The translations under genes and the position numbers were made by a program. From an uncultured delta proteobacterium (GTDB lineage: Bacteria; Desulfobacterota; RBG-13-43-22): DNA of 64,000 nucleotides. The stretch's first letter is position 1, and every line of letters starts with the position of its first letter. The stretch is from positions 1,216,001-1,280,000 of the forward strand of contig CAWBOS010000012.1 of the NCBI GenBank assembly GCA_963790475.1, written 5' to 3'. Under the pieces are notes generated by a model, which was not told the origin of the DNA, ran no database searches, and saw only the letters and a program-made list of their open reading frames with translations. Shown one piece after another: positions 3,108 to 25,920 of this stretch.

Positions 3108-3255
3108 GGCCAATAAGTTATTCTACAGTTTCAGTATAAATCACCAGCCCAAAGATTCCCCAACGCTGCATATTTGCTTTCTCTGCCGGACTCGCAACGG
3201 TTTCTTTTATTATAGCACACACCACCCTTTCCAATGAATTAAAATATTCTGACAG
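3108..3255 (-). promoter_or_regulatory. attI-like site plus promoter element, copy B
   Basis: Aligns along its length with 8575-8723; GTAGAAT-AACTT-ATTGGCC; TGCTATAAT at 3209-3217. Confidence 0.65.
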
Positions 3256-3359
3256 GTTTTTTGACGGGATATGGGGTCAGCAATAATCACAAATCATGGT
3301 TTGCCCCCATATCCCCCATAAAGCAAAATGCTAAAAAAATAGAACTGACCCTCCCTCTT

Positions 3360-3461
3360 GTAGATGGCCATGTCCAATCCACCGCAAAGAGCATGCTAGA
3401 TCTTCTCTTCGTTTAGTCTTGTGATCAGGTTCTTCAGTTCGTCTAACATATCCATGATCAT
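3360..3461 (-). pseudogene. Truncated nucleotidyltransferase cassette remnant
   Basis: Directly after attC: MIMDMLDELKNLITRLNEEKI*HALCGGLDMAIY, homologous to the N-terminus of 2631-3092; internal stop and truncation. Confidence 0.7.
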
Positions 3462-3469
3462 ATCCCCTC

Positions 3470-3518
3470 ACCTAACGTCCAGTTCACCAGCTTGGCTGGT
3501 GAAACTGTTTTGTTAGGC
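3470..3518 (-). mobile_element. attC site (49 bp)
   Basis: GCCTAAC-AAAAC-AGTTTCAC-CAGCCAAGCTG-GTGAACT-GGAC-GTTAGGT; R'' contains the TAA of the upstream gene; extra base in L''. Confidence 0.9.
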
Positions 3519-5030
3519 TGTTTGCGAATTCACCTTCTCGGCCAATATTTCAGCCGTTTTTTCTATGCCTGCTTGGTTTAGATCAATGTGCCCAATCGTC
3601 GAATGAATTCCTACCACATTTACATCATCTATCCGTAGTGGAAGAAGGTATTCATTGGTCCGCTTTTCTGCGGCAGCCTTACCAATTGATAACTCGAAAT
3701 CAGTCCAATCTCGTTCAGGGTATGACTTCGACAAAAAAACAACCATGTAGAGGGCTTCATTGGCGTAAACTTCTGATAGCCGTGTCCTTAAATCCTTCCC
3801 CCACAACTGCGCCTGCTGATCGAAGTCATAAAATACAGTAAGTCCACGGTTTTTCAAGGCCCGAACGAATTCTTCCACCGAAGCGCGGACATCCCCGGCA
3901 AAGGAAACCGCAACATCATATGGGTATTGGCTCGAACGTAATTGAATCCGTGACCTTATGTCGGTGATGTCAAGAAGGTTCATGTAAAATCGTAATGACG
4001 GATCTTCAATCGATATATAGCTTCCACCTTTCTTGTAAAAAAGAATGTCATCCAACCCCTTCTGCTCAATTACGTCACTGAGATTGTTCAGACAGTTATA
4101 GAAAGATGTTGCCTTTCTAGCCCGCTCCTTAGGATCGGAAATGCTTCCTACTATCGAGCGATATAGTCCCTCAGTGGGTATTTCGGACGCAGGTGAGCTT
4201 GCGATGTAAGCAACAATGTCGAAATAGGTATTGTGGACCGATTTGGCTTGCTGTTTTCCTTTCGCCAAACCAACCACTTTATCGCGGTACTTGCCATGGA
4301 AAATCCGCAGAACGGCTTCTCTAATGCTCATTAGCGTGGTGTCGATAACCTTTAATTCTAACTGCGTTTCTTCGATCTTCGCATCGATGCAGCACACCCT
4401 GGCTATAACGTGTACAATTGACGGAACTCCATTAGAAGCCTTCACAATCTCTTTAGTGAGAGAGTCTGTAAAACTAATTTTGAGAGCTGCTGACCCTAGG
4501 CGAAGGAGTTCCTTACAGAAGTTGTCCGACTGAGTTTTCAATTCGTATGGATCGTTACGAATGCCGAGTTCCGGGTCAGTACCATATAACTCCTCAGCAG
4601 AAGTGGCAATACCGATAATAATGAAGCGAACGTTTTTTTCATGCCAGAGCTTTAATTTCGACGCGATTTCAAGGCGAGCCCCCTGCTTAATGAAGTGAAA
4701 GTCATCGATCACAACGAAGCTGACAAGTTGTAATAACTCAGTTATTTGATTAAAAGAAGGGGCGGTCCCAAGTTCCTGAGCTAGCAGAAGTATCCCAGAA
4801 TCTACATCTGCATACTGTCGCCCATTGATCCAAAGGACGTCCGTCTCGGCAATTGATAGTTCTCGAAGGATTTTTCTCGCAACTGTTGTTTTTCCAGTGC
4901 CAGACGCGCCGGATAAGGTGATGTGCTTACCTGGAGTCTTAAATGACGCTTTGATGTACGGGTATTCCTTCGGCTCTACAAAAGTTACTTCAGGGAACGC
5001 TGCTTCATTAAATACATGTTCAAGTTGCAT
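3513..5030 (-). CDS. P-loop ATPase with C-terminal TIR domain (defence-like), cassette-borne
   Basis: Walker A GASGTGKT, Walker B VVIDDFH; TIR motifs YDVAVSFAG, VFYD, VVFLSKSY, WTDFEL. Confidence 0.85.
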   Translation of the reverse strand: MQLEHVFNEAAFPEVTFVEPKEYPYIKASFKTPGKHITLSGASGTGKTTVARKILRELSIAETDVLWINGRQYADVDSGILLLAQELGTAPSFNQITELLQLVSFVVIDDFHFIKQGARLEIASKLKLWHEKNVRFIIIGIATSAEELYGTDPELGIRNDPYELKTQSDNFCKELLRLGSAALKISFTDSLTKEIVKASNGVPSIVHVIARVCCIDAKIEETQLELKVIDTTLMSIREAVLRIFHGKYRDKVVGLAKGKQQAKSVHNTYFDIVAYIASSPASEIPTEGLYRSIVGSISDPKERARKATSFYNCLNNLSDVIEQKGLDDILFYKKGGSYISIEDPSLRFYMNLLDITDIRSRIQLRSSQYPYDVAVSFAGDVRASVEEFVRALKNRGLTVFYDFDQQAQLWGKDLRTRLSEVYANEALYMVVFLSKSYPERDWTDFELSIGKAAAEKRTNEYLLPLRIDDVNVVGIHSTIGHIDLNQAGIEKTAEILAEKVNSQTA

Positions 5031-5201
5031 TCATGCCCCCCATTTAAATTTAAATCGCCATCTAAACTTTAACCTTCAGTTCATAGAATATTGCACCAAG
5101 CACGTCAGGATACAGGAGACTGTACATCAGCCGATTTAGCGGACTCTCATTCTGTTCCTTATCAGTATCAGTAAAGAAGGAACCATCTGCGCCTCCCTTT
5201 A

Positions 5202-5262
5202 ACCCAACGCTACTAATCAGCCGCGAGGCTTTTTGCGTCGGCTAAAATATCCTAGGTTAGCC
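5202..5262 (-). mobile_element. attC site
   Basis: GGCTAAC...AGCCGACGCAAAAAGCCTCGCGGCTG...GTTGGGT immediately after the stop at 5264. Confidence 0.8.
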
Positions 5263-5263
5263 G

Positions 5264-6025
5264 CTATAATTTTTCCTTTTTAAGTTCATCAAATTCTTTT
5301 TTCTTTGCAGGAAGTCTCTCAAATATGTAGTCCAGATACTCTTCTATTGCTGCGGCCGGTGGATTTTTATATTCAGCTGCATGTTGAATTATGTAACGAT
5401 ACTTTGTGTAGAACGGATGGAGGGTAATTAATCCCACGCCGAACTGACCGCAAAGGCCCACAATATCTTCTAATCCATCGAGCCTGCTATCCTTGTCCCT
5501 TTCGATGACTACATAGGCTTCATTTGAAAATATCCCATGGGAGGCAGCCTCATAGACACAACTCGAGTTCCACTTGTCTTTTGGTTTTATCTCATATGTG
5601 GTTAAGGCAACCGCCTTTATACCCAATAAAGGATAGTGCTGAATGGAAATCTTCACAACGTCCGGATTTGCCCATTTACCCCGCTTTTTAAAACCGCTCG
5701 TGTCGCATAATACAGCTAATTCCTCATTCTCGTCTTTTTCCGCCTCCAATACTTCTATGAAAGGCGTGTAAATAGCCAGTTCCTTCTTCGAGGCCTTTTC
5801 TTCGGGTGGTGCGATTTGTTGTTCCCCTGTCTCTGTTAATTGTATCCCTCCACCACGACAGCAATATTTCTTTACAAAACTACCATCTAGAAGCCTCTGG
5901 CGAACCTTGTCGTAGCGTTGATCGTTCAAGTCGAGCTTAGATCTGATTTGATAATTTGAGGTGGGGCCATTGTCAAAAAGAAGTTGTAGTACCCTTTTTG
6001 TGTCTTTCATCTTTGGCATCGTCAC
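5264..6025 (-). CDS. Winged-helix plus PD-(D/E)XK-like nuclease domain protein, cassette-borne
   Basis: N-terminal wHTH-like region (GGGIQLT); GKWANPDVV...YEIK...YEAASH...SNEAYVV. Confidence 0.65.
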   Translation of the reverse strand: MTMPKMKDTKRVLQLLFDNGPTSNYQIRSKLDLNDQRYDKVRQRLLDGSFVKKYCCRGGGIQLTETGEQQIAPPEEKASKKELAIYTPFIEVLEAEKDENEELAVLCDTSGFKKRGKWANPDVVKISIQHYPLLGIKAVALTTYEIKPKDKWNSSCVYEAASHGIFSNEAYVVIERDKDSRLDGLEDIVGLCGQFGVGLITLHPFYTKYRYIIQHAAEYKNPPAAAIEEYLDYIFERLPAKKKEFDELKKEKL

Positions 6026-6050
6026 TCCTTTATTCTTGCGGGCATTATGA

Positions 6051-6111
6051 GGCTAATCGCGGCGCTGACGAATTTAGCGCCGTGATTCTCGGTGACGCAG
6101 TCGTCGAGAAC
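6051..6111 (-). mobile_element. Candidate gene-less mini-cassette with degenerate att hairpin
   Basis: G|TTCTCG...CGAGAAT-CACGGCGCT-N9-AGCGCCGCG-ATTAGCC. Confidence 0.5.
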
Positions 6112-6159
6112 GAAAAAATCAGCCGGAGTGTAGCGATCGGCTGAATTGATTGGTTAAGA
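6105..6159 (-). mobile_element. attC site
   Basis: TCTTAAC-CAATC-AATTCAGCCGATCGCTACACTCCGGCTGATTT-TTTC-GTTCTCG; TAA stop inside R''. Confidence 0.8.
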
Positions 6160-6917
6160 CTTCATATCTTCGGGACTCAATCTTTGAACAGGCATACTTT
6201 CAATATTCTGTCCAAACCCGATTACCTTGTCGAAAAGGGCGAGACAATTCCCTTCTGTTACGAAAAGCACCAGAGACAGCCACTGCGCTTCTTGGTAAAT
6301 ACTGAAATGCATGTGGAGGCCAAAATCTACTTTCGATAGGGCCACGGTGCCGTATTCAGCCCCTCTATTAGTTTAGCTTCCTGCCTACAATATGATATGA
6401 TCTTTTCCAAATCGTCGTGAAAATCGTCAGGATGCCACGCCAGCCAGTCTGAGTCTTTTCCGTTCTTCTTGGGCTTGAATGAACAATACTGCGTATAGGG
6501 CTTTTGACCGTCCGTGAGAAAATCAAAGAATGATGGATCAATAGGCTCGTGTCTAAAAAACCCCGTTCTGCCTTCGTGAAGTGAGTCCCATGTTTCTAAG
6601 TTGGGCGAAAATGGGAGTTCGGTGAGCAAGACCACCGGGTGAGGATTGTTCTTTGCTTCGCAGACAAAACGAACCGATACACAGACTTTCGTATCAAGAG
6701 GTGGCCTCTCGTGGACAGAATCCCAAAGTTCTGCTACGAGATCGATTTCACGGCTTTTCCCTGTTGTTGGGTCAATGATCCGCTGGTTTGGTTCAATAAA
6801 GAATCCGTTTTGGACAAGGGAGTGTACTATTCTAGACTCCATTACATACCCAGACCGCAAAAGTGCGTCGGACATCATAGACTCAATTGATTCCAGACTT
6901 TTTGTTTTCTTGGTCAT
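6154..6917 (-). pseudogene. Frameshifted restriction-endonuclease-like cassette gene (ORFs 6327-6917 and 6154-6345)
   Basis: SGYVME...DPTTGKSREIDLVAE...VCEAKNN motif; two overlapping ORFs inside one cassette, the second ending in the attC R''. Confidence 0.6.
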
Positions 6918-6924
6918 TGTTCAG

Positions 6925-6984
6925 CCATAAAAGTGCACCTCAAGAGCGGCGCGAAGCGACGTCATCTGCGTGTGCTTGTTGTGT
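6925..6984 (-). mobile_element. attC site with mutated R' (TTT instead of GTT)
   Basis: ACACAAC-AAGCA-CACGCAGATGACGTCGCTTCGCGCCGCTCTTGAGGTGCACT-TTTATGG. Confidence 0.7.
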
Positions 6985-7450
6985 CTGTATCTATCTTTTC
7001 TTTGGTTACGTTCCACTCTCGCTTCAGGATCCTACGTGAGACTGCCATGATCTCCGTATGCGACTTACAAAAATCCTCGTCACCTTCCTTACCACGTTCA
7101 AGTGAGGTGATCATCTTTCGGATAAGACGCTCAAGTTCATTATGATCGTCTTCCATAGGATTCAGCATGAGCTGAATCCTATGCTCCAATAAAGAAAGAT
7201 GCTGATATTCAGAATCCTCTCGTTCTTCAAACCCAGCACAGTAGTAATGCTGTGCACGACTGGTAAGTTCCGCAAGCACGTCACGTAGGTTGTTGATCCA
7301 CGCTTGCCGCATGGGGGCAATGATTTGTTTATGGGACGTTACGAGCGCACTGGCAATCTGTCGTTTTGCAACGAGGTATGAAATGATTGGCCCCACGAAA
7401 ACAGCAAGGGCGGCCACGACTAGCGATAAGATGGGAATTACCTCATTCAT
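6962..7450 (-). CDS. Hypothetical protein with N-terminal TM helix, cassette-borne
   Basis: 162 aa; hydrophobic N-terminus then helical domain (RQAWINNLRD...ILKREW); AAGGA RBS; bounded by attC sites. Confidence 0.75.
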   Translation of the reverse strand: MNEVIPILSLVVAALAVFVGPIISYLVAKRQIASALVTSHKQIIAPMRQAWINNLRDVLAELTSRAQHYYCAGFEEREDSEYQHLSLLEHRIQLMLNPMEDDHNELERLIRKMITSLERGKEGDEDFCKSHTEIMAVSRRILKREWNVTKEKIDTDTTSTRR

Positions 7451-7465
7451 TCTTTATTCCTTTTG

Positions 7466-7522
7466 ACATAACGTATACTTCAAGGGTGGCAGGATGCCGT
7501 CACGTGGAAGTGATTGTTGGGC
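7466..7522 (-). mobile_element. attC site
   Basis: GCCCAAC-AATCA-CTTCCACGTGACGGCATCCTGCCACCCTTGAAG-TATAC-GTTATGT. Confidence 0.85.
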
Positions 7523-8525
7523 CTTCCTTTCTATCTACGTATTGATGAATCCAAGACATGATGCCGTCAATGTCCTTAAGATCCAACTCCCATAAGTGTG
7601 CTTCTGCAAACTCAACCGCCGGGCGTGTGAAACCTGAGGTAGTCGCCAAGATCGCTTTACTGGCTCCGATGTGGTGCTTGACCCCGTAAAGGGACCGGAC
7701 CAACGCAACGTCCACTCTTCTTTCCTTCGAATACCGCTTGCACTCGACAAGGAAGCGCAATGGAACTTTATGAAGATTCGTCACAGCAAGAATGTCGACA
7801 CCTCCGTCACGAGTCCGTTTCGTTTGTTCTACCGAGTAGCCAAGTCCCTTGAACAGCTCAGCCATTAGGTCTTCGAAAGGCTGAGAACCAACCTGGTAAA
7901 TAAGCTCGGGATTCTTAACTATTTTTTTTATGAGTAGCTCGCCGATGTCTATAATAAGAGGAATTCCTTGTTCGCTGTATGGCGTTTCCTCCGGCAAAGC
8001 AATCCAATTCTCCTTGCAGATGTCGAAAACCGCCTCTGCAATATGTACTGTCTCTGGTGATAATATGGGAAGCAACTCGTAGGCGCATTTCAGGACATCT
8101 GTTCCTGGGGTAACTTGGTCGTGGGCCACACAACTGATCGAGAATAGCCATGCTTCCGCTTCGGCAACGTCACGGAGTCTCTGCCACGATTCCTCTGGCC
8201 GGGAATCCATGTGATCAAGCATTAAATGCGCAAGTTCGTGGTAGAATACCAGTCTATCCTGTGCGACGGCACTAATTTGAGAAAGAATCATGCCCATAGA
8301 ACCGTCTGGCATGGTCAGGCTGAGGCCACGAGCTTCCCCGACGGAGTCGCTGGTATCGATCGCTATAGTGAAACCAAGGTCCTTGCAGAGGTCAACGGCG
8401 ACCTCGGGAAAAGGTCGTGATCGGTAGCTTTTCGAAATGCCCGCGATTTCAAGGGACTTGTCGAACACCGCCTTCAGACGTATGGGATTGCCACCCACCA
8501 ACTTCGCCAATTCGTCAATATCCAA
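7500..8525 (-). CDS. ImmA/IrrE-like metallopeptidase domain fused to Mrr-like restriction endonuclease domain, first cassette
   Basis: HELAH (HExxH) then EAEA; C-terminal FEDLMAELF..LGY...DGGVDI...VECKRY...ATTSGFT. Confidence 0.8.
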   Translation of the reverse strand: MDIDELAKLVGGNPIRLKAVFDKSLEIAGISKSYRSRPFPEVAVDLCKDLGFTIAIDTSDSVGEARGLSLTMPDGSMGMILSQISAVAQDRLVFYHELAHLMLDHMDSRPEESWQRLRDVAEAEAWLFSISCVAHDQVTPGTDVLKCAYELLPILSPETVHIAEAVFDICKENWIALPEETPYSEQGIPLIIDIGELLIKKIVKNPELIYQVGSQPFEDLMAELFKGLGYSVEQTKRTRDGGVDILAVTNLHKVPLRFLVECKRYSKERRVDVALVRSLYGVKHHIGASKAILATTSGFTRPAVEFAEAHLWELDLKDIDGIMSWIHQYVDRKEGPTITST

Positions 8526-8574
8526 TTCTATTCCTCAAGTAGGACCCTGTCTCCACATTGGCGACGTCGCAGGC

Positions 8575-8723
8575 GGCCAACAAGTTATTCTAATGTTTTT
8601 CTGTATATCTTCCCAGCCCACAGGATCACGAACCTATTAAATTTGATTTATCTGTCAGGCTGACAGTGATTTTTTATTATACCACTCTAAATTTATTATA
8701 AATAATTAAAAATATCCTGACAG
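8575..8723 (-). promoter_or_regulatory. attI-like site, LexA-box-like 16-mer and Pc-like promoter, copy A (array head)
   Basis: TTAGAAT-AACTT-GTTGGCC; CTGTATATCTTCCCAG at 8601-8616; TGGTATAAT at 8676-8684 pointing into the array. Confidence 0.7.
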
Positions 8724-8750
8724 ATCCTTTTTCGATATCTATTGATTTCA

Positions 8751-8782
8751 CTGTATATCTTGTCATTTTACAGGATATACAG
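8751..8782. repeat. Inverted repeat CTGTATATCTTGT / ACAGGATATACAG
   Basis: 13-bp arms with one mismatch; CTGTATATCT also present at 8601-8610. Confidence 0.75.
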
Positions 8783-8926
8783 AAACACGGATAATCATCA
8801 TCATGCCATATATTAAATGCCCGGCCCACGCGCCGGCAGGAAAGCCAGGATGAGCCGTTTATGGGCCAGGATTAGGCGCTATGGGTTCAATCAGATTCAT
8901 TTTTGAATTGGACCTTAAGAAAGAAA

Positions 8927-8969
8927 GGGCGGTCCTTATGCTAACCCAATTTGGTTAAAAGAACCGCCC
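8927..8969. terminator. Long hairpin downstream of serC, possible terminator
   Basis: GGGCGGT...TAACC...GGTTA...ACCGCCC. Confidence 0.4.
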
Positions 8970-9053
8970 CGTTGTCTCCGGTTTTGTAAATGGTTTTGCT
9001 GTAATACTTTAGGTTTTTGAAGATTAGGCCTTTTCAAGACAACATTAGAGTCA

Positions 9054-9130
9054 AAATCCCCCTCAATCCCCCTTTTTCTAAGGGGGAAGTCTTTCTCCTT
9101 CCTTTGAAAAAGGGAGGTCGGGAGGGATTT
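9054..9130. repeat. Palindromic REP/MITE-like repeat
   Basis: AAATCCCCCTCAATCCCCCTT...AAGGGGGA...AAGGGAGGTCGGGAGGGATTT; terminal inverted repeats and internal hairpins. Confidence 0.65.
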
Positions 9131-9175
9131 ATGAATATTTTTTCAAACAGCTAAATTAATACTTTTTGCCTTGTT

Positions 9176-10303
9176 TTACAAGGCCGCCGCCTTTTCCTGA
9201 TAGACTTTTTCCAGTTCCGCCAGTGCTGTTTTCACATCCGCCGCTTCGATGGTCGGACCGCACCAGAAACGAAATCCCGGAGGGGCGTCCCTGTAAGACC
9301 CTATATCGTGGGCAGAGTTTTTTCGGCTCATTTCGTTCACGATGCTTTTGATGAATTTGGTTTGGTCCTCTTTGGCAAGGGCTGTAAACTTTTCCGAGGT
9401 CACATTCAAACAAACGGAGGTGTTGGAGCGGATCTCGACCGATTCTGCCAGAAAGGCTATCCAGTCGGTTTTTTCCACCCAATCTTCGATCACTCTCAGA
9501 TTGGCCTTGCTTCGGTCGATAAGCCCGCGAAGCCCTATTCCTCCTGCCCACTTGAGGGCATCGAGATAATCTTCTACGCAAATCATGGAAGTGGTATTGA
9601 TAACCTCGCCGATAAAGATGGCCTGGTTAATGGTATCGCCCTTTTTCATGCGGAAAAGCTTGGGCATGGGCCAGGGCGGATCATAAGACTCAAGGCGTTT
9701 GACCGCCCTGGGACTTAAGGCCAGCATGCCGTGGGCGGCTTCCCCACCGAGGCACTTCTGCCAGGAAAAGGTCAAAACATCAATTTTCGCCCAGTCGATA
9801 TCCATAGCGAAGGCCGCGCTGGTGGCGTCACAGAGGGATAACCCCTGACGATCGGCGGGAATCCATTCCCAATTAGGGATCTTGACGCCGCTGGTAGTGC
9901 CGTTAGCAACATAAACAACATCGTTGGACCAGTCTACGGATTTCAAGTCGGGAATTTTTCCATAATCCGCTTTCTTGATAGTCGGATTAAGTTTCAATTG
10001 TTTGGAGATGTCCGTCGCCCAGCCTTGGCTGAAGCTTTCCCACACCAAAACCGTTACTGGCCTGGGACCGAGCAGACTCCACATGGCGGCTTCAAAAGCT
10101 CCGGTATCTGAGGCAGGCATGATGCCCAGCAAATAATCTTCAGGCATTTCCAGAATTCTTTTGCTTTCATTAATGGCCTTGGCCAGCTTTTCCTTTCCCA
10201 AGGCGGAGCGATGAGATCGGCCTGTCAGGGCATCCTTTAAGCCGTCAAGGGTCCATCCGGGCCTTTTGCTGCAAGGGCCGGAGCTGAAATTTGGATTGTG
10301 CAT
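9176..10303 (-). CDS. serC: Phosphoserine aminotransferase (Methanosarcina-type)
   Basis: [53 protein letters not shown]. Confidence 0.93.
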
Positions 10304-10663
10304 AAATTCTTCCTTTCCTTTTTTTAACTTGGTGATTTCTCTTCCGGTAAAATAGAAGATATTTTGATTGGATTATGTCTTCGGGGTCTCCTCGGATAAT
10401 TTCTTTTCGATTCCCGGACTTGGAAGTTTTTCCTTTGATAGGAGACCTGTAAACTTTTTTTATGCCACATTTTCCAATAATTGTGAAGTGATTTTTAACT
10501 ATCAAGGGTGGATACACCTTATCCCGCGGCCTCTCCAAAACTAATCTTCCATGTCATTGAAAATAGGCAATAAGGATTTCCCTGCGTTTTCTCTTGAAAC
10601 TGTAAGCAATATCATTCAATTTCCAAAATTCTCCGAAACAACCCATTAATAATTATATTAATA

Positions 10664-10704
10664 AATCAATGTGTTGTTTAGAATTATTTGGTATATGCCT
10701 TGCT
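10664..10704 (+). promoter_or_regulatory. Sigma-54 promoter with upstream IHF site
   Basis: TGGTATATGCCTTGCT (GG-N10-GC) at 10689-10704; AATCAATGTGTTG (WATCAANNNNTTR) at 10664-10676. Confidence 0.7.
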
Positions 10705-10800
10705 GAATCAATAGATAAAGGGATTCAGAAACAACAGGCGGGAGGAGTCCTGAAACCTTTTTAGAGGGGAAAAACGACGGGAAAAAAGCTCAGAAGGATT

Positions 10801-11061
10801 TTGTACATCGATCCAGGCGGGAAAGTCATGTATATCCTGATCCGAGGAGGGGTAATGATAAAATCGATGCTCTCTTTGGAAACCACCCTGTCAATCCTGA
10901 CAAAACAGAATTTTGATTTACTCCTCACCAACCCCCTGAATATGACCATCCTGAACCCTCAGGAATCAATCCAGAATAGGGTCATGGATGTCTTAAGGGT
11001 ATTGACCTGTTCCAAAAAAGACTCTTTTGGACCCTTTGATTCTCAAACTGCAACGGCTTGA
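10801..11061 (+). CDS. Small hypothetical protein, degenerate receiver-like; start uncertain
   Basis: ILYID...LSILTKQNFDLLL resembles a receiver N-half; lies downstream of the sigma-54 promoter. Confidence 0.4.
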   Translation: MYIDPGGKVMYILIRGGVMIKSMLSLETTLSILTKQNFDLLLTNPLNMTILNPQESIQNRVMDVLRVLTCSKKDSFGPFDSQTATA

Positions 11062-11157
11062 ATATCCATTCTTTATTTTGCCAAAACCCAGTAATGTCTT
11101 CTCCATACGGGGAGGGCAATATTATAGAGTCGGGATTTTGAAACTGCTGAGGATTCG

Positions 11158-11790
11158 TTATTGAACACTAACGATAGAAATGACCGGGTTCATCATGTAG
11201 CGGTTACTTCCGGTTTGGTGGATAGACTTATCACCGTCTAAGTCCAGTAAAATACTTTTTACCCCTCCAGCTGCCAGATCGAATTCCCGGTTCAGCTTTA
11301 TTTCCCCCGATGATATTTCCAGGGGGGCATTCGCTCCCATGGGAGTGTCAATGAAAGAACCACAGGACGAACCGCCCGCAGTATTGTCAAAATAAAGAGC
11401 ACTTTGGGTGACCACTAATCGAATCTGAGTATAATGGCCCGCCGGAAGGAGAGCGGTTCCCAGGACGTCATTCGCCCCCCCGACCAGTTTCTTGAGGTCG
11501 CAGGTGCGTGAGTTTCCTGTCGTAAAGGGGACCGTAACCCAGCCGTTGGTGGTGTGATGGACTTGTACTTCGGAAAAGGTCACCAGAACCGCCTTGGCCT
11601 CGTTGAAGGGGCTGTCGGTCAGGTTGACAGTCAGGGTTCCGGTGGTCCCGCCTCCTCCTGAACTGGTGGTGCCTCCACCGCCGCCGGAGCAAGCGCATAA
11701 TCCGGAGAGTGATAAAACAAGCATCCCCAGCCCGATTAGATAAAAGAATTTCTTTAAATCCATTTTCATCTCATAAAAAGATTTCGCCAC
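11158..11790 (-). CDS. DUF4382-family lipoprotein
   Basis: Lipobox-like LCAC, Gly linker, GTLTVNLTDSP...AVLVTFSEV...GHYTQIRL...LDLDGDKSI...MNPVI. Confidence 0.85.
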   Translation of the reverse strand: MAKSFYEMKMDLKKFFYLIGLGMLVLSLSGLCACSGGGGGTTSSGGGGTTGTLTVNLTDSPFNEAKAVLVTFSEVQVHHTTNGWVTVPFTTGNSRTCDLKKLVGGANDVLGTALLPAGHYTQIRLVVTQSALYFDNTAGGSSCGSFIDTPMGANAPLEISSGEIKLNREFDLAAGGVKSILLDLDGDKSIHQTGSNRYMMNPVISIVSVQ

Positions 11791-11836
11791 AATCCTTGTT
11801 AAGGCATACCTCTTCCTTAATTATTTAGTTGATTTA

Positions 11837-12514
11837 GAAACCCCCGCCCTAAGGGCGGGGTCATGTGGACTGGCTATGCCGGTCCCGAATGGGCTTGGCT
11901 GAAAGCCCACCCACTGCTATTTTTTCCATCGAGTTGTTGCCGCAACATCGAAAGAAAGGAGATAGCAGTGAGTAGATTCCGAAAATTATCACATACCATA
12001 TGGCATTGTCAGTATCATATTGTCTGGGTTCCGAAATATCGCTATCAGATATTGGCTGGGAACATCGGGGAAACGATGGCCAGCGGGATCCAAGCGATTT
12101 GCGGGTATGCGGGTTGTGAAGTTAACGAGTTGAATGTTCAAAAGGATCATATTCATCTGGTAGCCATGGTTCCGCCCAAAGTATCGATATCGGACTTGAT
12201 GGGGCGGGTCAAGGGTCAGACATCGATGAAAATGTTTAACCAGTATCGGCAGTTGCGGAAGAAGCCGTATTGGGGTAATCATTTTTGGACCCCGGGGTAT
12301 TGTGTGGATACCGTTGGAATGGATGAGGAACTGATCCGGAAGTATGTCCGGTATCAAGAGGAAAAAGAAAAACAGTTCGAACAATTGCACTTGAATTTGT
12401 AGATCATCCATAACGCGGCACAACTCGGAAGCCCTGCCTCCTCAGGGGGCAGGGCCATTGCCCCCCTATGGGGGGCCCAGTTAAAGCCACGCCCTATGGG
12501 CGTGGATTATTTAC
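11837..12514 (+). mobile_element. IS200/IS605-family element (tnpA only); ends approximate
   Basis: Left hairpin CCCCGCCCTAAGGGCGGGG; right hairpins GCCCCCTATGGGGGC and CCACGCCCTATGGGCGTGG flanking tnpA. Confidence 0.85.
11968..12402 (+). CDS. tnpA: IS200-family Y1 (HUH) transposase
   Basis: YHIVWVPKYR, DHIHL, FWTPGYCVDTVG, IRKYVRYQ; AAGGAG RBS before GTG at 11968. Confidence 0.95.
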   Translation: MSRFRKLSHTIWHCQYHIVWVPKYRYQILAGNIGETMASGIQAICGYAGCEVNELNVQKDHIHLVAMVPPKVSISDLMGRVKGQTSMKMFNQYRQLRKKPYWGNHFWTPGYCVDTVGMDEELIRKYVRYQEEKEKQFEQLHLNL

Positions 12515-12530
12515 TGCATATCTGGTGCCA
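12515..12530 (-). promoter_or_regulatory. Sigma-54 promoter abutting the IS right end
   Basis: Minus strand TGGCACCAGATATGCA (GG-N10-GC); AT-rich tract and TGTAGGGAAAACCAGACA candidate enhancer upstream. Confidence 0.7.
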
Positions 12531-12695
12531 ATATCTAAACGCATAATTTATTAATTATATTTACTTGTTATAATTAGACTTGAAAAAGACAAATTCATCT
12601 ACTGTAGGGAAAACCAGACAAGAAATAGAGGAAAAACAAAAAAATCGATTTCGACTAAAAATTATCACTCCAAATTTACAGGTGTTCCCTTCGGT

Positions 12696-13079
12696 CTATT
12701 TCAGCCACCGGATGAATTCTAGCACATTATGGTCAGGATCGCTAATATAAATCCATTTCTCCTCCCCGGCGATTTCCAGCGGACCTTTAACGACCGGGAT
12801 ATGATGGTCCTCAATCAACTTGAGGGTCTGAGACATATCATCGCTGGTGAGTGCCAGATGCGGGCAATACGGCGGTTTGATCGTCGGCCTGGTAAAGGGT
12901 TCTCCGCCCAGCCGCTGAATCAATTCCAAGTTTCCTCCGGTTAACTCCAGAAAGGCATATTCCTCTTGTTCTTCCGTGTTCACCTCCCGGAAGATGAGCC
13001 GCAACCCTAAGACCTGGGTGTAGAACCTGATGGACTGATCCATATCGGAGACCTCAAAAGCCATATGATCGTTTTTCAC
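12696..13079 (-). CDS. VOC/glyoxalase family protein
   Basis: DHMAFEVSDMDQSIRFY, LELI, HLAL, DPDHNVLEF. Confidence 0.9.
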   Translation of the reverse strand: MKNDHMAFEVSDMDQSIRFYTQVLGLRLIFREVNTEEQEEYAFLELTGGNLELIQRLGGEPFTRPTIKPPYCPHLALTSDDMSQTLKLIEDHHIPVVKGPLEIAGEEKWIYISDPDHNVLEFIRWLK

Positions 13080-13256
13080 AATTGATGTCCTTTATCTCCA
13101 CAGAATAGGCGACTGATCCCTGCCTGATTCTTACATTAGATTATTTGAGAGTCTATCTCTATCATTTTATACCAGACCCTCTATGACCATCCTAAGATTT
13201 CGAATAGCATTTTTTACCTTTTATTCCCTAATTTATTGAATCGGGTTGGTACGGGG

Positions 13257-14528: not shown

Positions 14529-14549
14529 TTCAATATATCCTCTCCGGCC

Positions 14550-15461: not shown

Positions 15462-15803
15462 TATCTTCCCCTCCTTTATCTTGATCCTGCAAAAGTCGTG
15501 GCTTCACGATCATCCCTCTCATCCAAAATCCGGGATTAAGTGATTAATAAGAATCGGCGGTATTCACCCACCCACGCGGTCGTTTTTTACAGAGTATCAA
15601 AAAGTTTCTCAAAATACAACTAACCATCAACGACCTATTGTGTCTTGACCCATACCTCATTCTTTTTAATATTTATTGATTAACTCCAGCAAAATTGTTA
15701 AATTATTATATTAGATCATCTGAGAATTTATCTCTAACATTTTGGGCAAGACTCCCTATGACCTCCCAATATTTCAAGTAGGTTTTGATAGGTTTATCAG
15801 ACG

Positions 15804-19738: not shown

Positions 19739-20749
19739 ATGAAAGCAGCCGTCATGCACGGAGCAAGGGACATCAGGACCGAAACCGTACCCGATCCCGT
19801 TCTCGAACCCCATGGGGTGATTATCAAAGTGAAGGCTTGTGGTATTTGCGGGTCTGATCTTCACGTCTATAAACGCGATGGCCAGGAGGGGACCATCTTC
19901 GGGCACGAATTCAGCGGCGATGTGGTGGAATGCGGGTCTCAGGTGACGGGCATCTCACCGGGGATGCGCGTGACGGCTGTCGGATTCAAACCTTGCGGAA
20001 AATGTTTCTGGTGTTCCCAGGGAAAGGGATATCGTTGTTCCGACATGGCGCTTCTCGGCTATCAATTTCCAGGGGCCATGGCGGAATATGTCCATGTTCC
20101 TTTTGCCGCCTTCGGCCGCACCGTGTTCCCGCTGCCTGAGGAATTGACCTACGAAGATGGGGCGTCTGTTGAGCCCCTTTCCATTTCTTATTTTTCTGTC
20201 AGAAAAGCCCAGCCTAAGGAGAATGAATCCATTGCCGTCATCGGCTTGGGCGTCATCGGCCTGAATGCCGTCCAGGTGTTGAAAGCCATGGGGGTTTCTC
20301 AGATTCTGGCCAGCGGTCGCAGACCTTCTCGTCTGGAAGCCGCTAAAGCTTTCGGGGCCGAGATAGCCATTGACGCGGCTAAGGATGATGCCGTCAAAGC
20401 AGTAATAGAGGCAACAGGCAAAATGGGCGTCAATACGGTCATTGAATGTGTGGGTACCCAGGCAACCTTTGATCAGTCCGTCGCCATGGCCCGGGGCGGC
20501 GGAAAAATCATGCTGGTCGGGGTTTACGAGAAACCCCTCACCTGGAACCCCCAGCCCGTGATCTCCAAGAACCTCTCCCTCATCGGCTGTCTGGGAGGCA
20601 ACTTTCCGGCATCGATTGAGCTGCTCAAAAAGGACCAGGTTAACGCCAAGCCCCTGATCACCCATAGATTCTTATTGGATCAGGCCGCCGAGGCCTTCAA
20701 AGCACAGCTTCAGGACCCCGGTGCCATCAAGGTGATGATCAAACCCTAA
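19739..20749 (+). CDS. Zn-dependent MDR dehydrogenase
   Basis: CGICGSDLH, GHEFSG, CGKCFWC..C, GLGVIG. Confidence 0.92.
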   Translation: MKAAVMHGARDIRTETVPDPVLEPHGVIIKVKACGICGSDLHVYKRDGQEGTIFGHEFSGDVVECGSQVTGISPGMRVTAVGFKPCGKCFWCSQGKGYRCSDMALLGYQFPGAMAEYVHVPFAAFGRTVFPLPEELTYEDGASVEPLSISYFSVRKAQPKENESIAVIGLGVIGLNAVQVLKAMGVSQILASGRRPSRLEAAKAFGAEIAIDAAKDDAVKAVIEATGKMGVNTVIECVGTQATFDQSVAMARGGGKIMLVGVYEKPLTWNPQPVISKNLSLIGCLGGNFPASIELLKKDQVNAKPLITHRFLLDQAAEAFKAQLQDPGAIKVMIKP

Positions 20750-20856
20750 TGATACCCTGATCATGGGATCCTTTCTGAAAACCTTAAGAAAATAGGCGCT
20801 GTTTTAATTTTTGTTAGCGGTAGCTTATGAAAAATTAGGACAGAAAATTAAAGGAG

Positions 20857-21144
20857 ATGAGCATGGATGAAATATTTTTAAAAAAAGTTCGGGCTGCGGC
20901 AGTGGCTGGATGGTGGACTTTGTTAATTGCCTTTGGTATCCTGCTGATTCAATGGTTTGCTTATTTGCTGATTATGACCAATCAGCCGGCAGGAATGGGT
21001 TGCTTATGGGGTAAGGGCTTTACCTGGCCGGAAATCCGTACTATCTGGCTAAGGGCAATGGTGACCTATAAGTTCGTCGTCGGCATGATCTTATTTGTCG
21101 TCATCTGGCTGACACTTTGGGCAAGACAACTGGCAAAAAAATAA
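20857..21144 (+). CDS. Small membrane protein
   Basis: 95 aa, two hydrophobic segments, AAGGAG RBS. Confidence 0.7.
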   Translation: MSMDEIFLKKVRAAAVAGWWTLLIAFGILLIQWFAYLLIMTNQPAGMGCLWGKGFTWPEIRTIWLRAMVTYKFVVGMILFVVIWLTLWARQLAKK

Positions 21145-21230
21145 TAATGAACGTAGTGGATGAATAGCGGTTTCTTTATTTCAAAAAGTCTGAAAAACCG
21201 TAGGTCTTGGACAAAATCATCTTTGCCAAT

Positions 21231-22220
21231 TTATTCCTGTCGCTCTTTTTGCCAGGATAAAATAGTTTTCCCGATCCATTCATCGGCATTCAAAAGTATG
21301 GATAAATGATTTTCTTTTTTGATAATTTGGCTCACCGATTTTTTCTGTATCGCGCTTTCAGCATAGGTCGCATATTTGATCACTTTTTCAGGTGAAAACA
21401 AGTCATCATTGGCTCCAATAAACAAACCAAAAGGTTTATCTATTTTCTTGAACTGCTCCCGCGGATTATCCGGGGTCATTGATAAAGACATGTTGCGCGT
21501 AATGGATTTGAGAAGCAAAGGTTGTGCCGCCCGGATTTTCTCGGGATAATTAAAATAAACCGCTTGAGTGTTTCCAAAAAAGCGCCCACCGGAAATGGCC
21601 GATAGTATAAAAACCCATTTTTTGACGGAAACAAAGTAGTCTTTTGCGTTTTCACGGGCCGTGTCGGATTTATATCCAAATTGTGGTGAGACAAAGAAAT
21701 AGCCGTCAACCCCTTCTCTCTTATCCCAGACTGAATAATTTAATAACAGTCCGCCACCGGAAGAATGGCCGCCCAGAAATACAGGAATTCCCGGGTTGTT
21801 TCTTCGGACCATAGTGACAAATGGATTCAGATCTTTCCAGACCTGATCGACGGAAGGAGCGTCACCCCGTGGACCGCCGGAATTACCATGACCCCGCAGA
21901 TCAACAAGATATACGGAAGTTTGATATTTTTCACTCAACCCCTGGGCCAGATGTTGATAGCCGGCTCCACTATAGGCCCCCCCTCCATGGATAAATATCA
22001 AGGCGGCCACCGGTTTTGCCGGCGGAATTTTTGTATAATAGGCCAGATCAATTCCGTCAGAGGCTTTTAGAAATTGCGGTTTGTTCAGGAAAACCTTTGG
22101 CCCCTTCTGTATCTCCTCAAAAGATATCGGCCTTGGTTGTTCCTTGGATTTGCATCCACCCAGGAAGATCACTATCAGAAGAATAGGGAGAAATGGAATA
22201 ATAAGGCTTGCCTTGATCAT
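21231..22220 (-). CDS. Alpha/beta hydrolase lipoprotein (lysophospholipase-like)
   Basis: Lipobox LGGC; FIHGGG, DLRGHGNS, GHSSGG. Confidence 0.85.
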   Translation of the reverse strand: MIKASLIIPFLPILLIVIFLGGCKSKEQPRPISFEEIQKGPKVFLNKPQFLKASDGIDLAYYTKIPPAKPVAALIFIHGGGAYSGAGYQHLAQGLSEKYQTSVYLVDLRGHGNSGGPRGDAPSVDQVWKDLNPFVTMVRRNNPGIPVFLGGHSSGGGLLLNYSVWDKREGVDGYFFVSPQFGYKSDTARENAKDYFVSVKKWVFILSAISGGRFFGNTQAVYFNYPEKIRAAQPLLLKSITRNMSLSMTPDNPREQFKKIDKPFGLFIGANDDLFSPEKVIKYATYAESAIQKKSVSQIIKKENHLSILLNADEWIGKTILSWQKERQE

Positions 22221-22373
22221 GATTTATTTACTCTTTATTGTAATATTTTTAAAACCCGATTTTTGATAGATGTAAAACGGTCTTCATCTCTACCATGGCC
22301 CGGCCTCAATTTAAGAACAAATTAAAAATCCCAAATTAGGAAGAATCATCAACCTAATCATCAACCGCTTTTG

Positions 22374-23429
22374 TTACTTTAAAACATAATATACCGACCT
22401 TCCTGCACCCTCCGGCTTAATCACTTTGAGATCAACCAGCCTGGCTAATTCCTTATGAACCGCTTGGGCCGATATTTTAAAAAGTGTCTGCAAATCCTTA
22501 TTCGTGACTTTGCCGTAAGCGTTCATAAATTCAACAATCTTCATCTGCCTGTCGGTAAGAGTAATTGGCGCCTTCAAAGAGCGTTTTTTCTTGGAACCCA
22601 ATTTCAAGATCGCTTCCTTAACCTCGTTTACCGAATAGGTGACACCTGTTGTGAAATATTCGAGCCATTTAGTAGTATCGCCATCATTTTCCTGCACAGT
22701 CTTCAGAGCCGAATAATAGGCTGGCCTGTCCCGGTCATAAAAATCATCAAAGGCAAAAAGCCTGCGGTGATTAAACCCGCTTAAGTAGAGAATGAGTGCG
22801 GCCAATAGCCGGGACGTGCGGCCATTGCCGTCAATAAAAGGGTGGATCCTGGCAATTTCATAATGGGCGATTCCAGCCAGTAAGACTGGGTTTGTTTCCC
22901 AGGTTTGGTCAAGATTCAACCAGGCAATAAATTCTTTCACCAGATGAGGCACCTCCTCAGTCTTGGGGGGCCTATATACGACTTCTGATTTAAAGACGGT
23001 AGCATTAAAAACCCGTCTGCCCACAAAGACTTGTCGGTTACGAAAATCTCCGCTTTGGGTTTTGTCAGGCAAAACGTCTTTGGAAATCATCTTGTGAATA
23101 TTCAAAAGGTCTTCAACTTTGATTTTGCCATTTTCGGCAAAGGAATGAACGGTATCCAAGGCTTCAAGATAATTAAGCACCTCTTTTTTGTCTTTATCGG
23201 CAGCAATAATCTCCTTGCCTTCGGCCAGGGCCTCGACCTGCTCAAGAGTAAGTTGATTGCCTTCGATGGCGGTAGATGAATGGGTGTTACGAAGTTTAGC
23301 CTGCCTGCGCAGCGAGGCTTCCCATTTAGGCACCAGATGCGCTTGCTCGACAACTTCACGGGCCGAGGCAATAAGAGTGAGGTTATTGAGTATCTTTTCG
23401 GTTATGGTATATTTCGGATTAAAAGCCAA
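22374..23429 (-). CDS. Fic-family protein with C-terminal HTH
   Basis: HPFIDGNGRTSR catalytic motif; STAIEGN inhibitory motif; TTG start after GGAGAGG. Confidence 0.92.
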   Translation of the reverse strand: MAFNPKYTITEKILNNLTLIASAREVVEQAHLVPKWEASLRRQAKLRNTHSSTAIEGNQLTLEQVEALAEGKEIIAADKDKKEVLNYLEALDTVHSFAENGKIKVEDLLNIHKMISKDVLPDKTQSGDFRNRQVFVGRRVFNATVFKSEVVYRPPKTEEVPHLVKEFIAWLNLDQTWETNPVLLAGIAHYEIARIHPFIDGNGRTSRLLAALILYLSGFNHRRLFAFDDFYDRDRPAYYSALKTVQENDGDTTKWLEYFTTGVTYSVNEVKEAILKLGSKKKRSLKAPITLTDRQMKIVEFMNAYGKVTNKDLQTLFKISAQAVHKELARLVDLKVIKPEGAGRSVYYVLK

Positions 23430-23559
23430 TGGTTGCCTCTCCAATCTACAAAGGCTCTCTATGCGAATTCTCAACTATCAATTTTTGCCTTAAAAAGGGC
23501 CATATAGGCCTAAAATAAGCCCTCTTGCTAAATAATTATCAGGTATTCTGACCAGTTCG

Positions 23560-23573
23560 CGTGGCCCGCCCCC
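23560..23573 (+). repeat. CGTGGCCCG(A/C)CCCC short repeat, copy 1
   Basis: Matches 24407-24424 and the reverse complement of 27748-27765. Confidence 0.6.
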
Positions 23574-23594
23574 AAATTAACAATCTGGATCTTC

Positions 23595-23765
23595 CTAAAT
23601 TTCTGCTGCCCTTAGTTTTGTCCTTATTTCTTTTTCTCGCTCATCTAAGATAATCCGATTGAACTCATTTATTTCTTCCAGCCATCGTAGTTTTTCTTCG
23701 GTGGAAAGTTTCAAATATTCGATTATCTTCTCCTCTTCGAGGGTATATTGAAATCCTTTTTTCAT
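23595..23765 (-). CDS. Small (56 aa) partner of nucleotidyltransferase
   Basis: MKKGFQYTLEEEKIIEYLKLSTEEKLRWLEEINEFNR...; ATGA overlap with the upstream stop; below the ORF-track cutoff. Confidence 0.7.
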   Translation of the reverse strand: MKKGFQYTLEEEKIIEYLKLSTEEKLRWLEEINEFNRIILDEREKEIRTKLRAAEI

Positions 23766-24262
23766 TTTATTTCCCCAAGATACTTTCTGACTTTTTTCAG
23801 CATTTTTATATCACTGGCATCTTGAATTCTTCCGCTGAATTCCTTGGTCTTTATAAGGTCATTTATGGATGCCAGATAAATCTCAAAATCCTTGACTTTC
23901 TTCACGGTTTTGTTCTTAAACGATTCTTCAAAATGGAGCGGGTGGACGAGCAGGATGTCGATCACCTTATAGTTGTCTTGCTTATGATAAAAACTGAAGG
24001 CTTTAAGATTTCTGTTTTCAATCCAGTCTTTCACTTTCTCAGAATCAGTCAGGTCCTTCGGATTCACCGGCAACCGGGGAGTATAACCAAGATACTTCAG
24101 TACTTCGTTAATTTTAATAATATTTGATTTTCTCGTTGAAATAATAAGGTCAATATCTTGAGTCAATCGCGGTACACCGTAAAGGTTAACCGCAAGCCCA
24201 CCAACAATAAGATATCGCACCTTTTTCTTATACAAGGCCTCCAGAATTTCAAAATAATACAT
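23762..24262 (-). CDS. Nucleotidyltransferase (DUF6036-like)
   Basis: YLIVGGLAVNLYGVPRLTQDIDL...IDIL...DLIKTK...RIQDASDI. Confidence 0.85.
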   Translation of the reverse strand: MYYFEILEALYKKKVRYLIVGGLAVNLYGVPRLTQDIDLIISTRKSNIIKINEVLKYLGYTPRLPVNPKDLTDSEKVKDWIENRNLKAFSFYHKQDNYKVIDILLVHPLHFEESFKNKTVKKVKDFEIYLASINDLIKTKEFSGRIQDASDIKMLKKVRKYLGEIK

Positions 24263-24406
24263 TTAATGCTGCCCCATTTTTTATTTGTTTTTTACCCTCA
24301 ATCATATCTTTTAGAATTTCTAACCACCGATTTATTACTTCAAAAAGTGTGATATAGATCTTTTTAAAGCTCGTTTTATTAACGGCCTTGAAATGATTTT
24401 GATCTG

Positions 24407-24424
24407 TTGACGTGGCCCGACCCC
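24407..24424 (+). repeat. TTGACGTGGCCCGACCCC repeat, copy 2
   Basis: Near-identical to the reverse complement of 27748-27765. Confidence 0.65.
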
Positions 24425-24513
24425 AGATTCATTTCATTCGCGCCTTTTGACCGAAAGTATACCCGACCCCTCTTTCGGCAGAGAGTCTTTCCCTCTAACC
24501 ATCCATAGCCGTT

Positions 24514-25668
24514 CTAAAATGGGATATCGTCTTCGGGGAAAGGACCCTTAGTCTGCTCAGCTTCTTTGAAATTATTCCATTGCTCAGCAAACGGCTTCAT
24601 CCATGGATTCTCAAGGCTTTGCGTTCCATCCTCTTTATACTCTAAAAATGAGTGGAGAGCATTATAGAACCTCTTGTCCCCTTCCTTGAGTCCCCGTTTG
24701 ACAGCAGCCTGAAACATCCAGTTTGGTTTCTGCAGAACCTTTGATATCTCATCGAACAAGTACTGGAAGACACAGTCCTGTTCATACGTGTCTGAACTAC
24801 TGAGCTTTTCTATACAGGCATCCGCTGTTTCCTGCTTTAGAAGAAAGTATCTTGCCCTCCCTCTTGCCCATGTTCCCAAAGCCCCCTTTAGGCACTTGTT
24901 TTGGCTTATGTCGTAGGAGCCAATTTTTATGGACTTGATAATCATATTCTCTGCACGCATTCTGCTAATTTCATCAAGTCTGGACCAGTATTCCATCGGA
25001 AAAGCCTGCATTAATGTGTAGATCGGTTTGTCCTCATCAGTGATTCTCAATTCCTCAGAGATGACTTTATAAAGTTCGGTGATTTCCTCATCTATCATCC
25101 GTTTCAACAAGGCGTTCACAAAATACTTTATCTTATTGAATTGACCTTCTCTCTGCCTAAAAACCTTTATCATGACGTCGAGCCGCTTACGGGGCGGAAC
25201 TTGCTCTGCCAACAGGGCGCCGTATCTATCTTTTTCGACGAAGTCCGGATCAAACACCAGTTTAAGAAAGCTGGACTCTGAGAATTGTGTCCTAGATTGA
25301 TCGATTATTCCTATCAACCAGTTGACGAATATAATGATTGAATCAGCGTCGATAACTTTATCGCTGTATTTCTCGTGGCTTCTTGGATTACGAATAGCCT
25401 TAATGATTCCGCGCAGTATTTGTTCCAACCCCTCTTGAACATTCCAATCCGATTCGGTCTGAAGGCTATTCACTTTCAGTCTAGGTTGTTTTCCTCCGAA
25501 AGCCTGACCGATGAGGGCCACGCCATCACTTTCTATCCCTGTTTTATCTCTAATAAGGTCGTTCAGGAAGTAGATACTATCAAGGATGGATGACGTATAC
25601 CTACTGTTTTCGTAGTTCTCTCTAATGGTCTGCCAGAGTCTCTCGTCAATCCTAGTTTCCAAATTCAT
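24514..25668 (-). CDS. TIGR02391-family protein
   Basis: IRDKTGIESDGVALIGQAFGG..P.LKVN.LQTESD.NVQEG...IRNPRSHE; low-GC accessory gene. Confidence 0.8.
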   Translation of the reverse strand: MNLETRIDERLWQTIRENYENSRYTSSILDSIYFLNDLIRDKTGIESDGVALIGQAFGGKQPRLKVNSLQTESDWNVQEGLEQILRGIIKAIRNPRSHEKYSDKVIDADSIIIFVNWLIGIIDQSRTQFSESSFLKLVFDPDFVEKDRYGALLAEQVPPRKRLDVMIKVFRQREGQFNKIKYFVNALLKRMIDEEITELYKVISEELRITDEDKPIYTLMQAFPMEYWSRLDEISRMRAENMIIKSIKIGSYDISQNKCLKGALGTWARGRARYFLLKQETADACIEKLSSSDTYEQDCVFQYLFDEISKVLQKPNWMFQAAVKRGLKEGDKRFYNALHSFLEYKEDGTQSLENPWMKPFAEQWNNFKEAEQTKGPFPEDDIPF

Positions 25669-25776
25669 TCATAACCCCCCTTTCCATCCAAAACGGTATG
25701 CCGAATTATAAAAATCAGGAAATCAAAACCTTAGTTCCTTGCCCACAGACACAAACAGGCAAATACTTCTGGCCGT

Positions 25777-25920
25777 TCTGTGCAAGTTATTTTATGGTTT
25801 CTGAATGTATTCCCAACCCCAAAAGTTATATTAGAGTCGCATAGCAAATAATTTTGGTTTACCAGCCCAGCCTCCAATGTTTTATTTTATCATATCATTC
25901 TTAAACTATTATAAATAATT
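25777..25920 (-). promoter_or_regulatory. attI-like plus promoter element, copy C (diverged)
   Basis: CAAGTTATTTTATGGTTTCTGAATGTATTCCCAACCCC and TTTTATCATATCATTCTTAAACTATTATAAATAATT match blocks of 8581-8707; TGATATGAT extended -10. Confidence 0.55.

Follow-up and report, generated by a model that had tools for sequence, protein, structure and literature searches.

The closest described counterparts of the element reported here are the attI/Pc platforms of integrons, such as those of class 1 integrons (attI1) and of Vibrio cholerae (attIA), in which the recombination site attI and the cassette promoter Pc lie divergent from the integrase gene intI and the promoter reads into the cassettes. 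The boxes of attI1 are named DR1, DR2, L and R, and in canonical integron mechanics there is one attI per array. Here we describe a module of about 150 nt that occurs three times in a 64,000-nt stretch of DNA (the window) from an uncultured delta proteobacterium (assembly GCA_963790475.1, contig CAWBOS010000012.1, positions 1,216,001 to 1,280,000 of the forward strand). We consider it likely that each module is a copy, variously decayed, of the functional attI/Pc platform of a lineage-specific integron. A preliminary description of the window had proposed that integrase-free copies of such a platform head cassette arrays, and this central proposal was borne out.

Arrays that lack an integrase have been described before. 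A cluster of attC sites without an integron-integrase is termed a CALIN by IntegronFinder (PMC4889954); that paper gives loss of intI as one proposed origin of CALINs, and states that attI is unknown for most integrons, hence not searchable, and that Pc cannot drive the cassettes of a CALIN, so that such arrays are generally seen as separated from Pc as well as from attI. A preprint (bioRxiv 10.1101/2022.09.11.507474) reports cassettes outside the intI-linked attI, which are expressed if they lie behind a promoter.

The module and its counterpart beside intI

We observed that the three copies, A (8575-8723), B (3108-3255) and C (25777-25920), were all read on the minus strand, and that each lay directly upstream of a minus-strand accessory gene. 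Their end-to-end alignment agreed with the coordinates and shared blocks first given for them. Over 152 aligned columns, A and B agreed at 105; their local score was 61, and 300 dinucleotide shuffles gave 17.3±2.6 and at most 33. A and C agreed at 96 of 141 columns (local score 50, against 19.3±2.7, maximum 29). B and C compared alone aligned over 39 columns with a score of 23, which is within the shuffle range (17.4±2.4, maximum 30). All three aligned end to end with intI-adjacent attI regions of related genomes.

We examined these integrase loci using the IntI model TIGR02249. Among the 21 genomes examined from the order, 6 had an IntI above the cut-off. At four of the ten IntI loci, the gene-proximal part of the module (the core, about 50 nt) was present on the opposite strand just past the start of intI, with IntI scores of 354-386 bits (cut-off 265), and the module lay about 230 nt from this divergent, bona fide intI. 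At the locus L135 (we number loci L, genomes G and contigs C), for example, the intI ATG is at 2952, TTGTCA-N17-TATAAT at 3030-3058 and the crossover at 3184|3185, 232 nt from the ATG. Since the module stands beside a divergent intI at four of the ten IntI loci, it is probably this lineage's attI with a candidate Pc promoter; the preliminary description had made its reading depend on homology to the attI region of a cognate intI, and such homology was found in four related genomes. Locus L100 (identical to G007:C174) holds an integron with all its parts: IntI is of full length and lies 21 nt upstream of the module, the junction GTTAGCG is matched by the R'' box CGCTAAC of the first attC, and three matches to our attC model follow downstream.

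The IntI proteins beside attI (L135:1498-2952, L136:1498-2970 and L137:1498-2970) are of 485-491 amino acids. They have an N-terminal extension of about 170 amino acids before the SAM-like and catalytic domains, outside the TIGR02249 match (model positions 4-313). On the intI strand, a TTGACA coincides in part with the Pc -35 box (TTGTCA), at L135:3025-3040 and at the corresponding position of L136 and L137, and therefore Pc and a candidate Pint appear to stand back to back and to share one palindromic -35 region.

Matches to the promoter consensus were TTGTCA-N17-TATAAT in the intI-adjacent copies and CTGTCA-N17-TATAAT in A. Module A (core hidden Markov model, HMM, E 4.7e-11) has this Pc-like promoter with its -35 CTGTCA at 8723-8718 and its -10 TATAAT at 8700-8695 (10/12 matches in a promoter scan), a second extended -10 TGGTATAAT at 8684-8676, a palindrome CTGTCAGGCTGACAG at 8652-8666, and the attI core at about 8625-8575 with the crossover G|TT at 8581|8580. 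Module B (E 5e-9) has a -35-like CTGTCA at 3255-3250, has lost the canonical -10, and has an extended -10 TGCTATAAT at 3217-3209 and an attI core with a degenerate crossover A|TT at 3114|3113. Module C (E 1.7e-7), with a TATAAT-bearing promoter region and an attI core lacking the GTT (…AACTTGCACAG), is a decayed copy. The junctions were thus as first described (ATT for GTT in B, no GTT in C), as was the distance of 95 nt from the end of the extended -10 to the G|TT position, which on counting was the same in A and B. Upstream of its module, copy A has kept an inverted repeat CTGTATATC-N14-GATATACAG (8751-8782); in the complete platforms (L135-L137) this repeat sits between the intI start codon and Pc, and a similar motif was found upstream of 23 of 108 modules.

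These features allow a comparison with the known platforms. Like attI1 and attIA, the module is divergent from intI in its complete copies, with a predicted promoter reading into the cassettes and an R box GTTRRRY that has its crossover at G|TT. It also has an inverted box ending in AAC and, upstream, GTTAY-like direct repeats; the attC R'' box of the first cassette complements the junction. Unlike known attI sites, it is unrelated in sequence, has about 126 nt between the -10 and the crossover, is conserved across several deltaproteobacterial orders, and reaches 23 copies per genome, most of them without intI and some inside arrays.

In its working form, the platform would hold a sigma-70 promoter Pc (canonically TTGTCA-N17-TATAAT), followed by a stretch of 95-135 nt ending in the attI site, which would be laid out as a GTTATAC-like direct repeat, an inverted …GAATAAC box, a TT spacer and the R box G|TTRRRY. 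Where the integron is intact and the divergent intI lies about 230 nt from the crossover, IntI would insert circular cassettes at G|TT, and Pc would transcribe them.

The preliminary description had also read a LexA box in the module. Its 16-mers at 8601, 3132 and 25801 are as described, with an exact CTG-N10-CAG at 8601 only. The LexA reading itself did not hold: of 109 copies, only 2 had CTG-N10-CAG at this place in the module and 0 had CTGT-N8-ACAG, the pattern carried by the lexA promoters of this genome itself. By eye, there was no LexA box between intI and Pc in L135-L137. Of the three lexA paralogues (G000:C15:185598, C10:1588213 and C10:972813), two have the operator CTGTACAAATGAACAG between -35 and -10, and the third carries CCATACAAATGTATGG instead, which suggests a second LexA specificity.

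The promoter and the conserved sequence after it could also be read in another way, with the module mainly a lineage-specific promoter or 5'-leader (a regulatory RNA) behind which cassettes landed by secondary-site insertion at a fortuitous GTT. The near-consensus promoter, the 95-135 nt of conserved transcribed sequence and the hairpins just upstream of GGAG (by eye, of different sequence in different copies) would fit this, and the preprint (bioRxiv 10.1101/2022.09.11.507474) reports that IntI can mediate insertion at places other than att sites. However, RNAalifold gave 0 consensus pairs on 85 copies (with a rough alignment of the variable part), and Rfam returned no family for the window (gathering search) or for six good copies (E<=1). 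There is also no conserved 'native' downstream sequence, every copy ending at the crossover, and the intI adjacency in four genomes fits attI. We therefore regard a promoter or leader as improbable. While cassettes here are likewise outside the canonical intI-linked attI, the receiving site is a conserved attI homologue rather than an arbitrary GTT.

The dispersed family

An HMM built from A, B and C gave many partial matches elsewhere in the genome, all to the gene-proximal 50 nt or so. This core (…GGAGTTATACAGAAACTTTAGAATAACTTG|TT) has 23 copies on five contigs of the genome (core HMM, E<=0.0012), with small direct clusters at C12:1522-1524k, C13:505-510k and C10:194-200k. A 24-nt pattern, allowing up to 3 mismatches, was found in 19 of 41 genomes, the window's own included (15 of 20 in the same family, 3 of 20 in other families of the phylum), and the reversed pattern gave 0 matches in all 41 genomes. 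An exact 20-mer was found in 71 stretches of a species-level genome collection. Going by record titles, 56 were deltaproteobacterial or Thermodesulfobacteriota (among them Syntrophaceae, Smithella, Syntrophus, Syntrophales, Desulfobacterales, Desulfomonilia and Syntrophorhabdaceae), 7 'Proteobacteria' only and 8 of other taxa. The other-taxon titles included Psychromonas, Algoriphagus, Methanobacterium, Verrucomicrobia and Bacillota; the Bacillota-titled record agrees with one titled Deltaproteobacteria along the 204 nt compared. The three Psychromonas records with exact matches were ruled out as module copies, since the divergent gene there encodes an ABC-transporter binding protein, and the matches are thus an unrelated transporter promoter.

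The modules A and B and their cassette array lie in an 8.7-kb block (426-9176) that is absent at the orthologous locus of a same-genus genome, where window positions of about 425 and about 9177 stand about 200 nt apart.

A multi-copy, dispersed sequence could also be the end of a miniature inverted-repeat transposable element (MITE) or an insertion sequence (IS)-like element with an outward-facing promoter. Contigs break at the module (L136 ends in the core), and an IS200-like transposase lies in the window at 11863-12402. We observed, however, no target-site duplications (the junction heptamer recurred upstream in 7 copies where 2.9 were expected, which is a slight excess), no paired inverted copy and no associated transposase; clustered copies are all direct, and the orientation is always toward a gene. 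Such an origin is highly improbable. As one IntI contig (L136) ends inside the core, attI is itself a likely cause of assembly breaks in these genomes.

Crossover end, attC sites and cassettes

We further analysed 109 unique module copies for the point at which conservation ends. The sequence was near-invariant up to …AGAATAACTTGTT, and conservation stopped at GTT, which was present in 97 of the 109 copies (many of which had been found with a pattern that itself contained GTT). The following bases were biased toward a GTTRRRY-like form (+1 A47/G37/C22/T3, +2 G69, +3 G46/C34, +4 C58). The reverse complement of the junction heptamer was present within 2.5 kb downstream in 30 copies, against 10.15±2.93 on permutation (0 of 300 permutations reached 30); allowing one mismatch plus a hairpin, it was present in 39, against 16-25 in five permutations. 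The exact complements fall on the R'' boxes of textbook attC sites, in which RYYYAAC is followed by a 5-nt spacer, by a hairpin that is imperfect and has bulged bases, and by GTTRRRY; a junction complement in an attC marks a cassette that was joined at G|TT by its 5' end. The G|TT crossover first proposed for the module end is thus supported by both the GTTRRRY bias and the junction complements.

The attC sites were searched with a covariance model of our own (not that of IntegronFinder), built from 11 sites, all of other genomes. It replaced two energy-based finders that were both non-specific, one giving 26 matches in the window against 40-52 in shuffles, and the other giving best shuffled energies equal to the real ones. 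In the window, the model gave three strong matches (E<=2e-6), all on the minus strand and all between A and B. They are at 6105-6159 (R'' TCTTAAC, R' GTTCTCG; 34.2 bits, E 2e-6), at 5202-5262 after a gene of 253 amino acids at 5264-6025 (R'' GGCTAAC, R' GTTGGGT; 36.9 bits, E 4e-7), and at 3470-3518 (R'' GCCTAAC, R' GTTAGGT; 34.5 bits, E 1.7e-6). The last folds as DNA to -14.2 kcal/mol (z -5.57, 0 of 200 shuffles as good), and the stop codon of the AAA-TIR gene 3513-5030 (TIR_2, AAA_22) sits within its R'' box. Just past it, on the same strand, is a 21-codon open reading frame (ORF; 3390-3460), whose product resembles the N-terminus of the nucleotidyltransferase after module B, and which looks like a truncated earlier cassette.

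Beyond these three, the model found a weak or decayed minus-strand site at 2496-2561 (20 bits, E 0.012) and nothing else below E 0.1 in the window. The R'' GGCCAAC of this site, 70 nt past the gene of module B, complements the module B junction (A)TTGGCC; a longer version of the site (2451-2561) had a fold z of -1.56 only. The earlier claim that A and B each head attC-bounded cassettes is therefore borne out only in part. For B, it has this weak site; for A, the nearest candidate (7466-7522) folds no better than shuffles (z -0.56 and -0.28), and the three strong co-oriented sites lie farther downstream. No attC was found by the model in the window after the gene of module C.

The same orientation was observed across loci. 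All 52 matches of the attC model in 94 sources were co-oriented with the nearest module, and the 41 that were not in the training set were mostly downstream of modules (30, against 11 upstream). At single-module loci, 28 new matches were downstream (234 kb searched) and 9 upstream (265 kb searched). In the genome-wide search, there were at least 14 matches, a lower bound because 150 of 1598 candidates were scored and one known site was missed; 6-8 of these were within 4 kb of a core, as read from their coordinates.

The genes behind the modules encode Mrr nucleases, a STAND NTPase, TIR, BrnT and Schlafen/AlbA_2 proteins and nucleotidyltransferases, and this cargo is typical of chromosomal cassettes. 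In the window, all on the minus strand, module A is followed by a gene (7500-8525) with an HEXXH N-terminal part (ImmA-like, by eye) and Mrr_cat (9.4e-26), module B by a nucleotidyltransferase cassette gene (2631-3093; NTP_transf_5/DUF6036/AbiEii-like), and module C by a gene with a Hypoth_Ymh domain (24514-25668).

The array context also bears on whether the module is itself the attC-type end of an ORF-less, promoter-carrying gene cassette, moving like any cassette. Some copies are inside arrays, 356-361 nt after a co-oriented attC (module B of the window and L050), some cores stand right behind an ORF, in the place where an attC should be, and by eye the right arm can pair, with G·T wobbles, with the region just past the -10 in canonical copies. 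The test of the left junction, however, was negative: GTTNNNN with its complement upstream of or inside the module gave 50 pairs in 42 copies, against 56 in 44 for the reversed control, and therefore the module itself is not bounded like a cassette. Nor is there a RYYYAAC box that changes along with the upstream junction; modules are not matched by the attC model, and the module occupies the attI position beside intI. We consider a promoter cassette quite improbable.

Integrase loss and the strength of the attI reading

The preliminary description held that the platform exists without intI in several places, and indeed we found 23 copies and no IntI in this genome, where the best TIGR02249 score was 105 bits (cut-off 265) and the matches skip the IntI-specific segment. 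The single trace was a 70-aa stub (C10:587184-587336) next to the module copy at C10:586993. Within 1.5 kb of 13 of the 109 modules there was a divergent IntI, complete or as a remnant, being full length at one, an internal or C-terminal piece at four, and an N-terminal stub or short N-proximal fragment (19-90 aligned residues) at eight. As intI is gone from this genome, its copies would be frozen landing pads, at most still promoters for the defence-like and toxin-antitoxin-like cassettes behind them.

Two attC-model matches were also observed beside a 314-aa Xer-like tyrosine recombinase (G000:C10:1649482-1651184 and C10:1651376-1652170). This recombinase has an identical copy at C11:98089-98883, and its match to the IntI model (105+72 bits) leaves out the IntI-specific segment.

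Several observations weigh against the module as an attI/Pc platform. No IntI is present in this genome, and hence no recombination can be claimed here. At six of the ten IntI loci there is no core nearby (some are at contig ends, and three have a second IntI type). The exact junction complement was found in only 30 of the 109 copies, and the canonical CTTGTT is lost in 8 of the 23 copies of this genome, B (ATT) and C among them, as read from the alignment. A strict promoter (TTGTCA-like -35, 16-18 nt spacer, TATAAT-like -10) is present in only 28 of 108 copies, and many copies are core only. The attC candidate after the first gene of A (7466-7522) is poor (11.4 bits, E 2.1). Some arrays have several cores (C13:505-510k, C12:1522-1524k), and some cores come straight after an ORF or at 356-1320 nt past a co-oriented attC; canonical integron mechanics yield neither arrangement. 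The attI reading is based on homology to the intI-adjacent attI, on the crossover signature and on the co-oriented attC arrays; IntI binding to the boxes, promoter activity and past recombination at each copy are predicted from these.

A second IntI type is that of G045/G009 contig C5, which had no core within 40 kb and no obvious array beside it.

How the copies became dispersed can be pictured in more than one way. Repeated loss of intI from many integrons is possible, as is mobility of an attI-bearing unit. In a stronger form of the latter, the attI-Pc module would itself be a mobilisable unit, a 'portable integron platform', on which one or a few integrases act in trans. Recombination by IntI between the attI crossover and an attC upstream of it (or a secondary GTT) would then release an attI-carrying circle, which could re-insert at any attC elsewhere and so seed promoter-equipped mini-arrays round the chromosome. 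This would explain the 23 copies, the modules 356-361 nt behind an attC (module B of the window and L050), the tandem cores, and the solo modules beside IntI in relatives; we hold it as a tentative and rather doubtful proposal. Service in trans, which had been suggested for this genome, fails here, as no IntI is assembled and 8 of the 23 copies lack the canonical GTT; it may operate in those relatives where solo modules occur together with IntI.

With three co-oriented minus-strand attC sites (E<=2e-6; at least two define the class) and no IntI in the genome, the window holds a CALIN. The likeness to a CALIN lies in this co-orientation and in the lack of a nearby intI; unlike CALINs as presented in the IntegronFinder paper, the orphan arrays here still have an attI of their own and partly also a Pc. 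Degenerate chromosomal integrons with intI pseudogenes (e.g. in Xanthomonas) similarly keep the platform while intI decays, but at one locus, whereas here there are many platforms per genome.

A literature search (supplements excluded) found no description of this attI site or of dispersed attI copies. The module offers a defined, searchable and widely conserved attI/Pc sequence, multi-copy and mostly orphaned. It indicates that attI can be multi-copy (23 in one genome), and that integrase-free arrays can keep their own promoter and landing site. Whether one integrase can serve many platforms becomes testable, and a route is suggested by which defence-gene cassettes may stay expressed after loss of intI.

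Several other repeats were observed in the window and its genome. Between the conserved gene 9176-10303 and module A there is an interspersed, MITE-like repeat of about 110-160 nt (9000-9165; …CCCCTCAATCCCCCTTTTTCTAAGGGGG…), with dozens of copies here and in all 13 same-genus genomes searched. The IS200-like gene encodes a Y1 transposase, and is within a segment (about 10359-12696) that is absent from the same-genus orthologous locus. A 59-nt direct repeat family has three copies (13132-13190, 15707-15765 and 30606-30664; 76-81% identity). A 50-nt repeat (24284-24333 and 27822-27871, 78% identity) precedes a nucleotidyltransferase (23762-24262) and a DUF2281/PIN pair (26948-27582), and may be a shared toxin-antitoxin promoter or operator. 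A further element of about 70 nt (…AAGATCTTAAGGAGATTTATGGCCC..TTCCATGTCTCAAAAGATCCA…) is present before several cores without a canonical promoter, at L042 (G000:C10:192000-203000), L041, L052 and L031/L084; this may represent either another kind of upstream platform or one more repeat.

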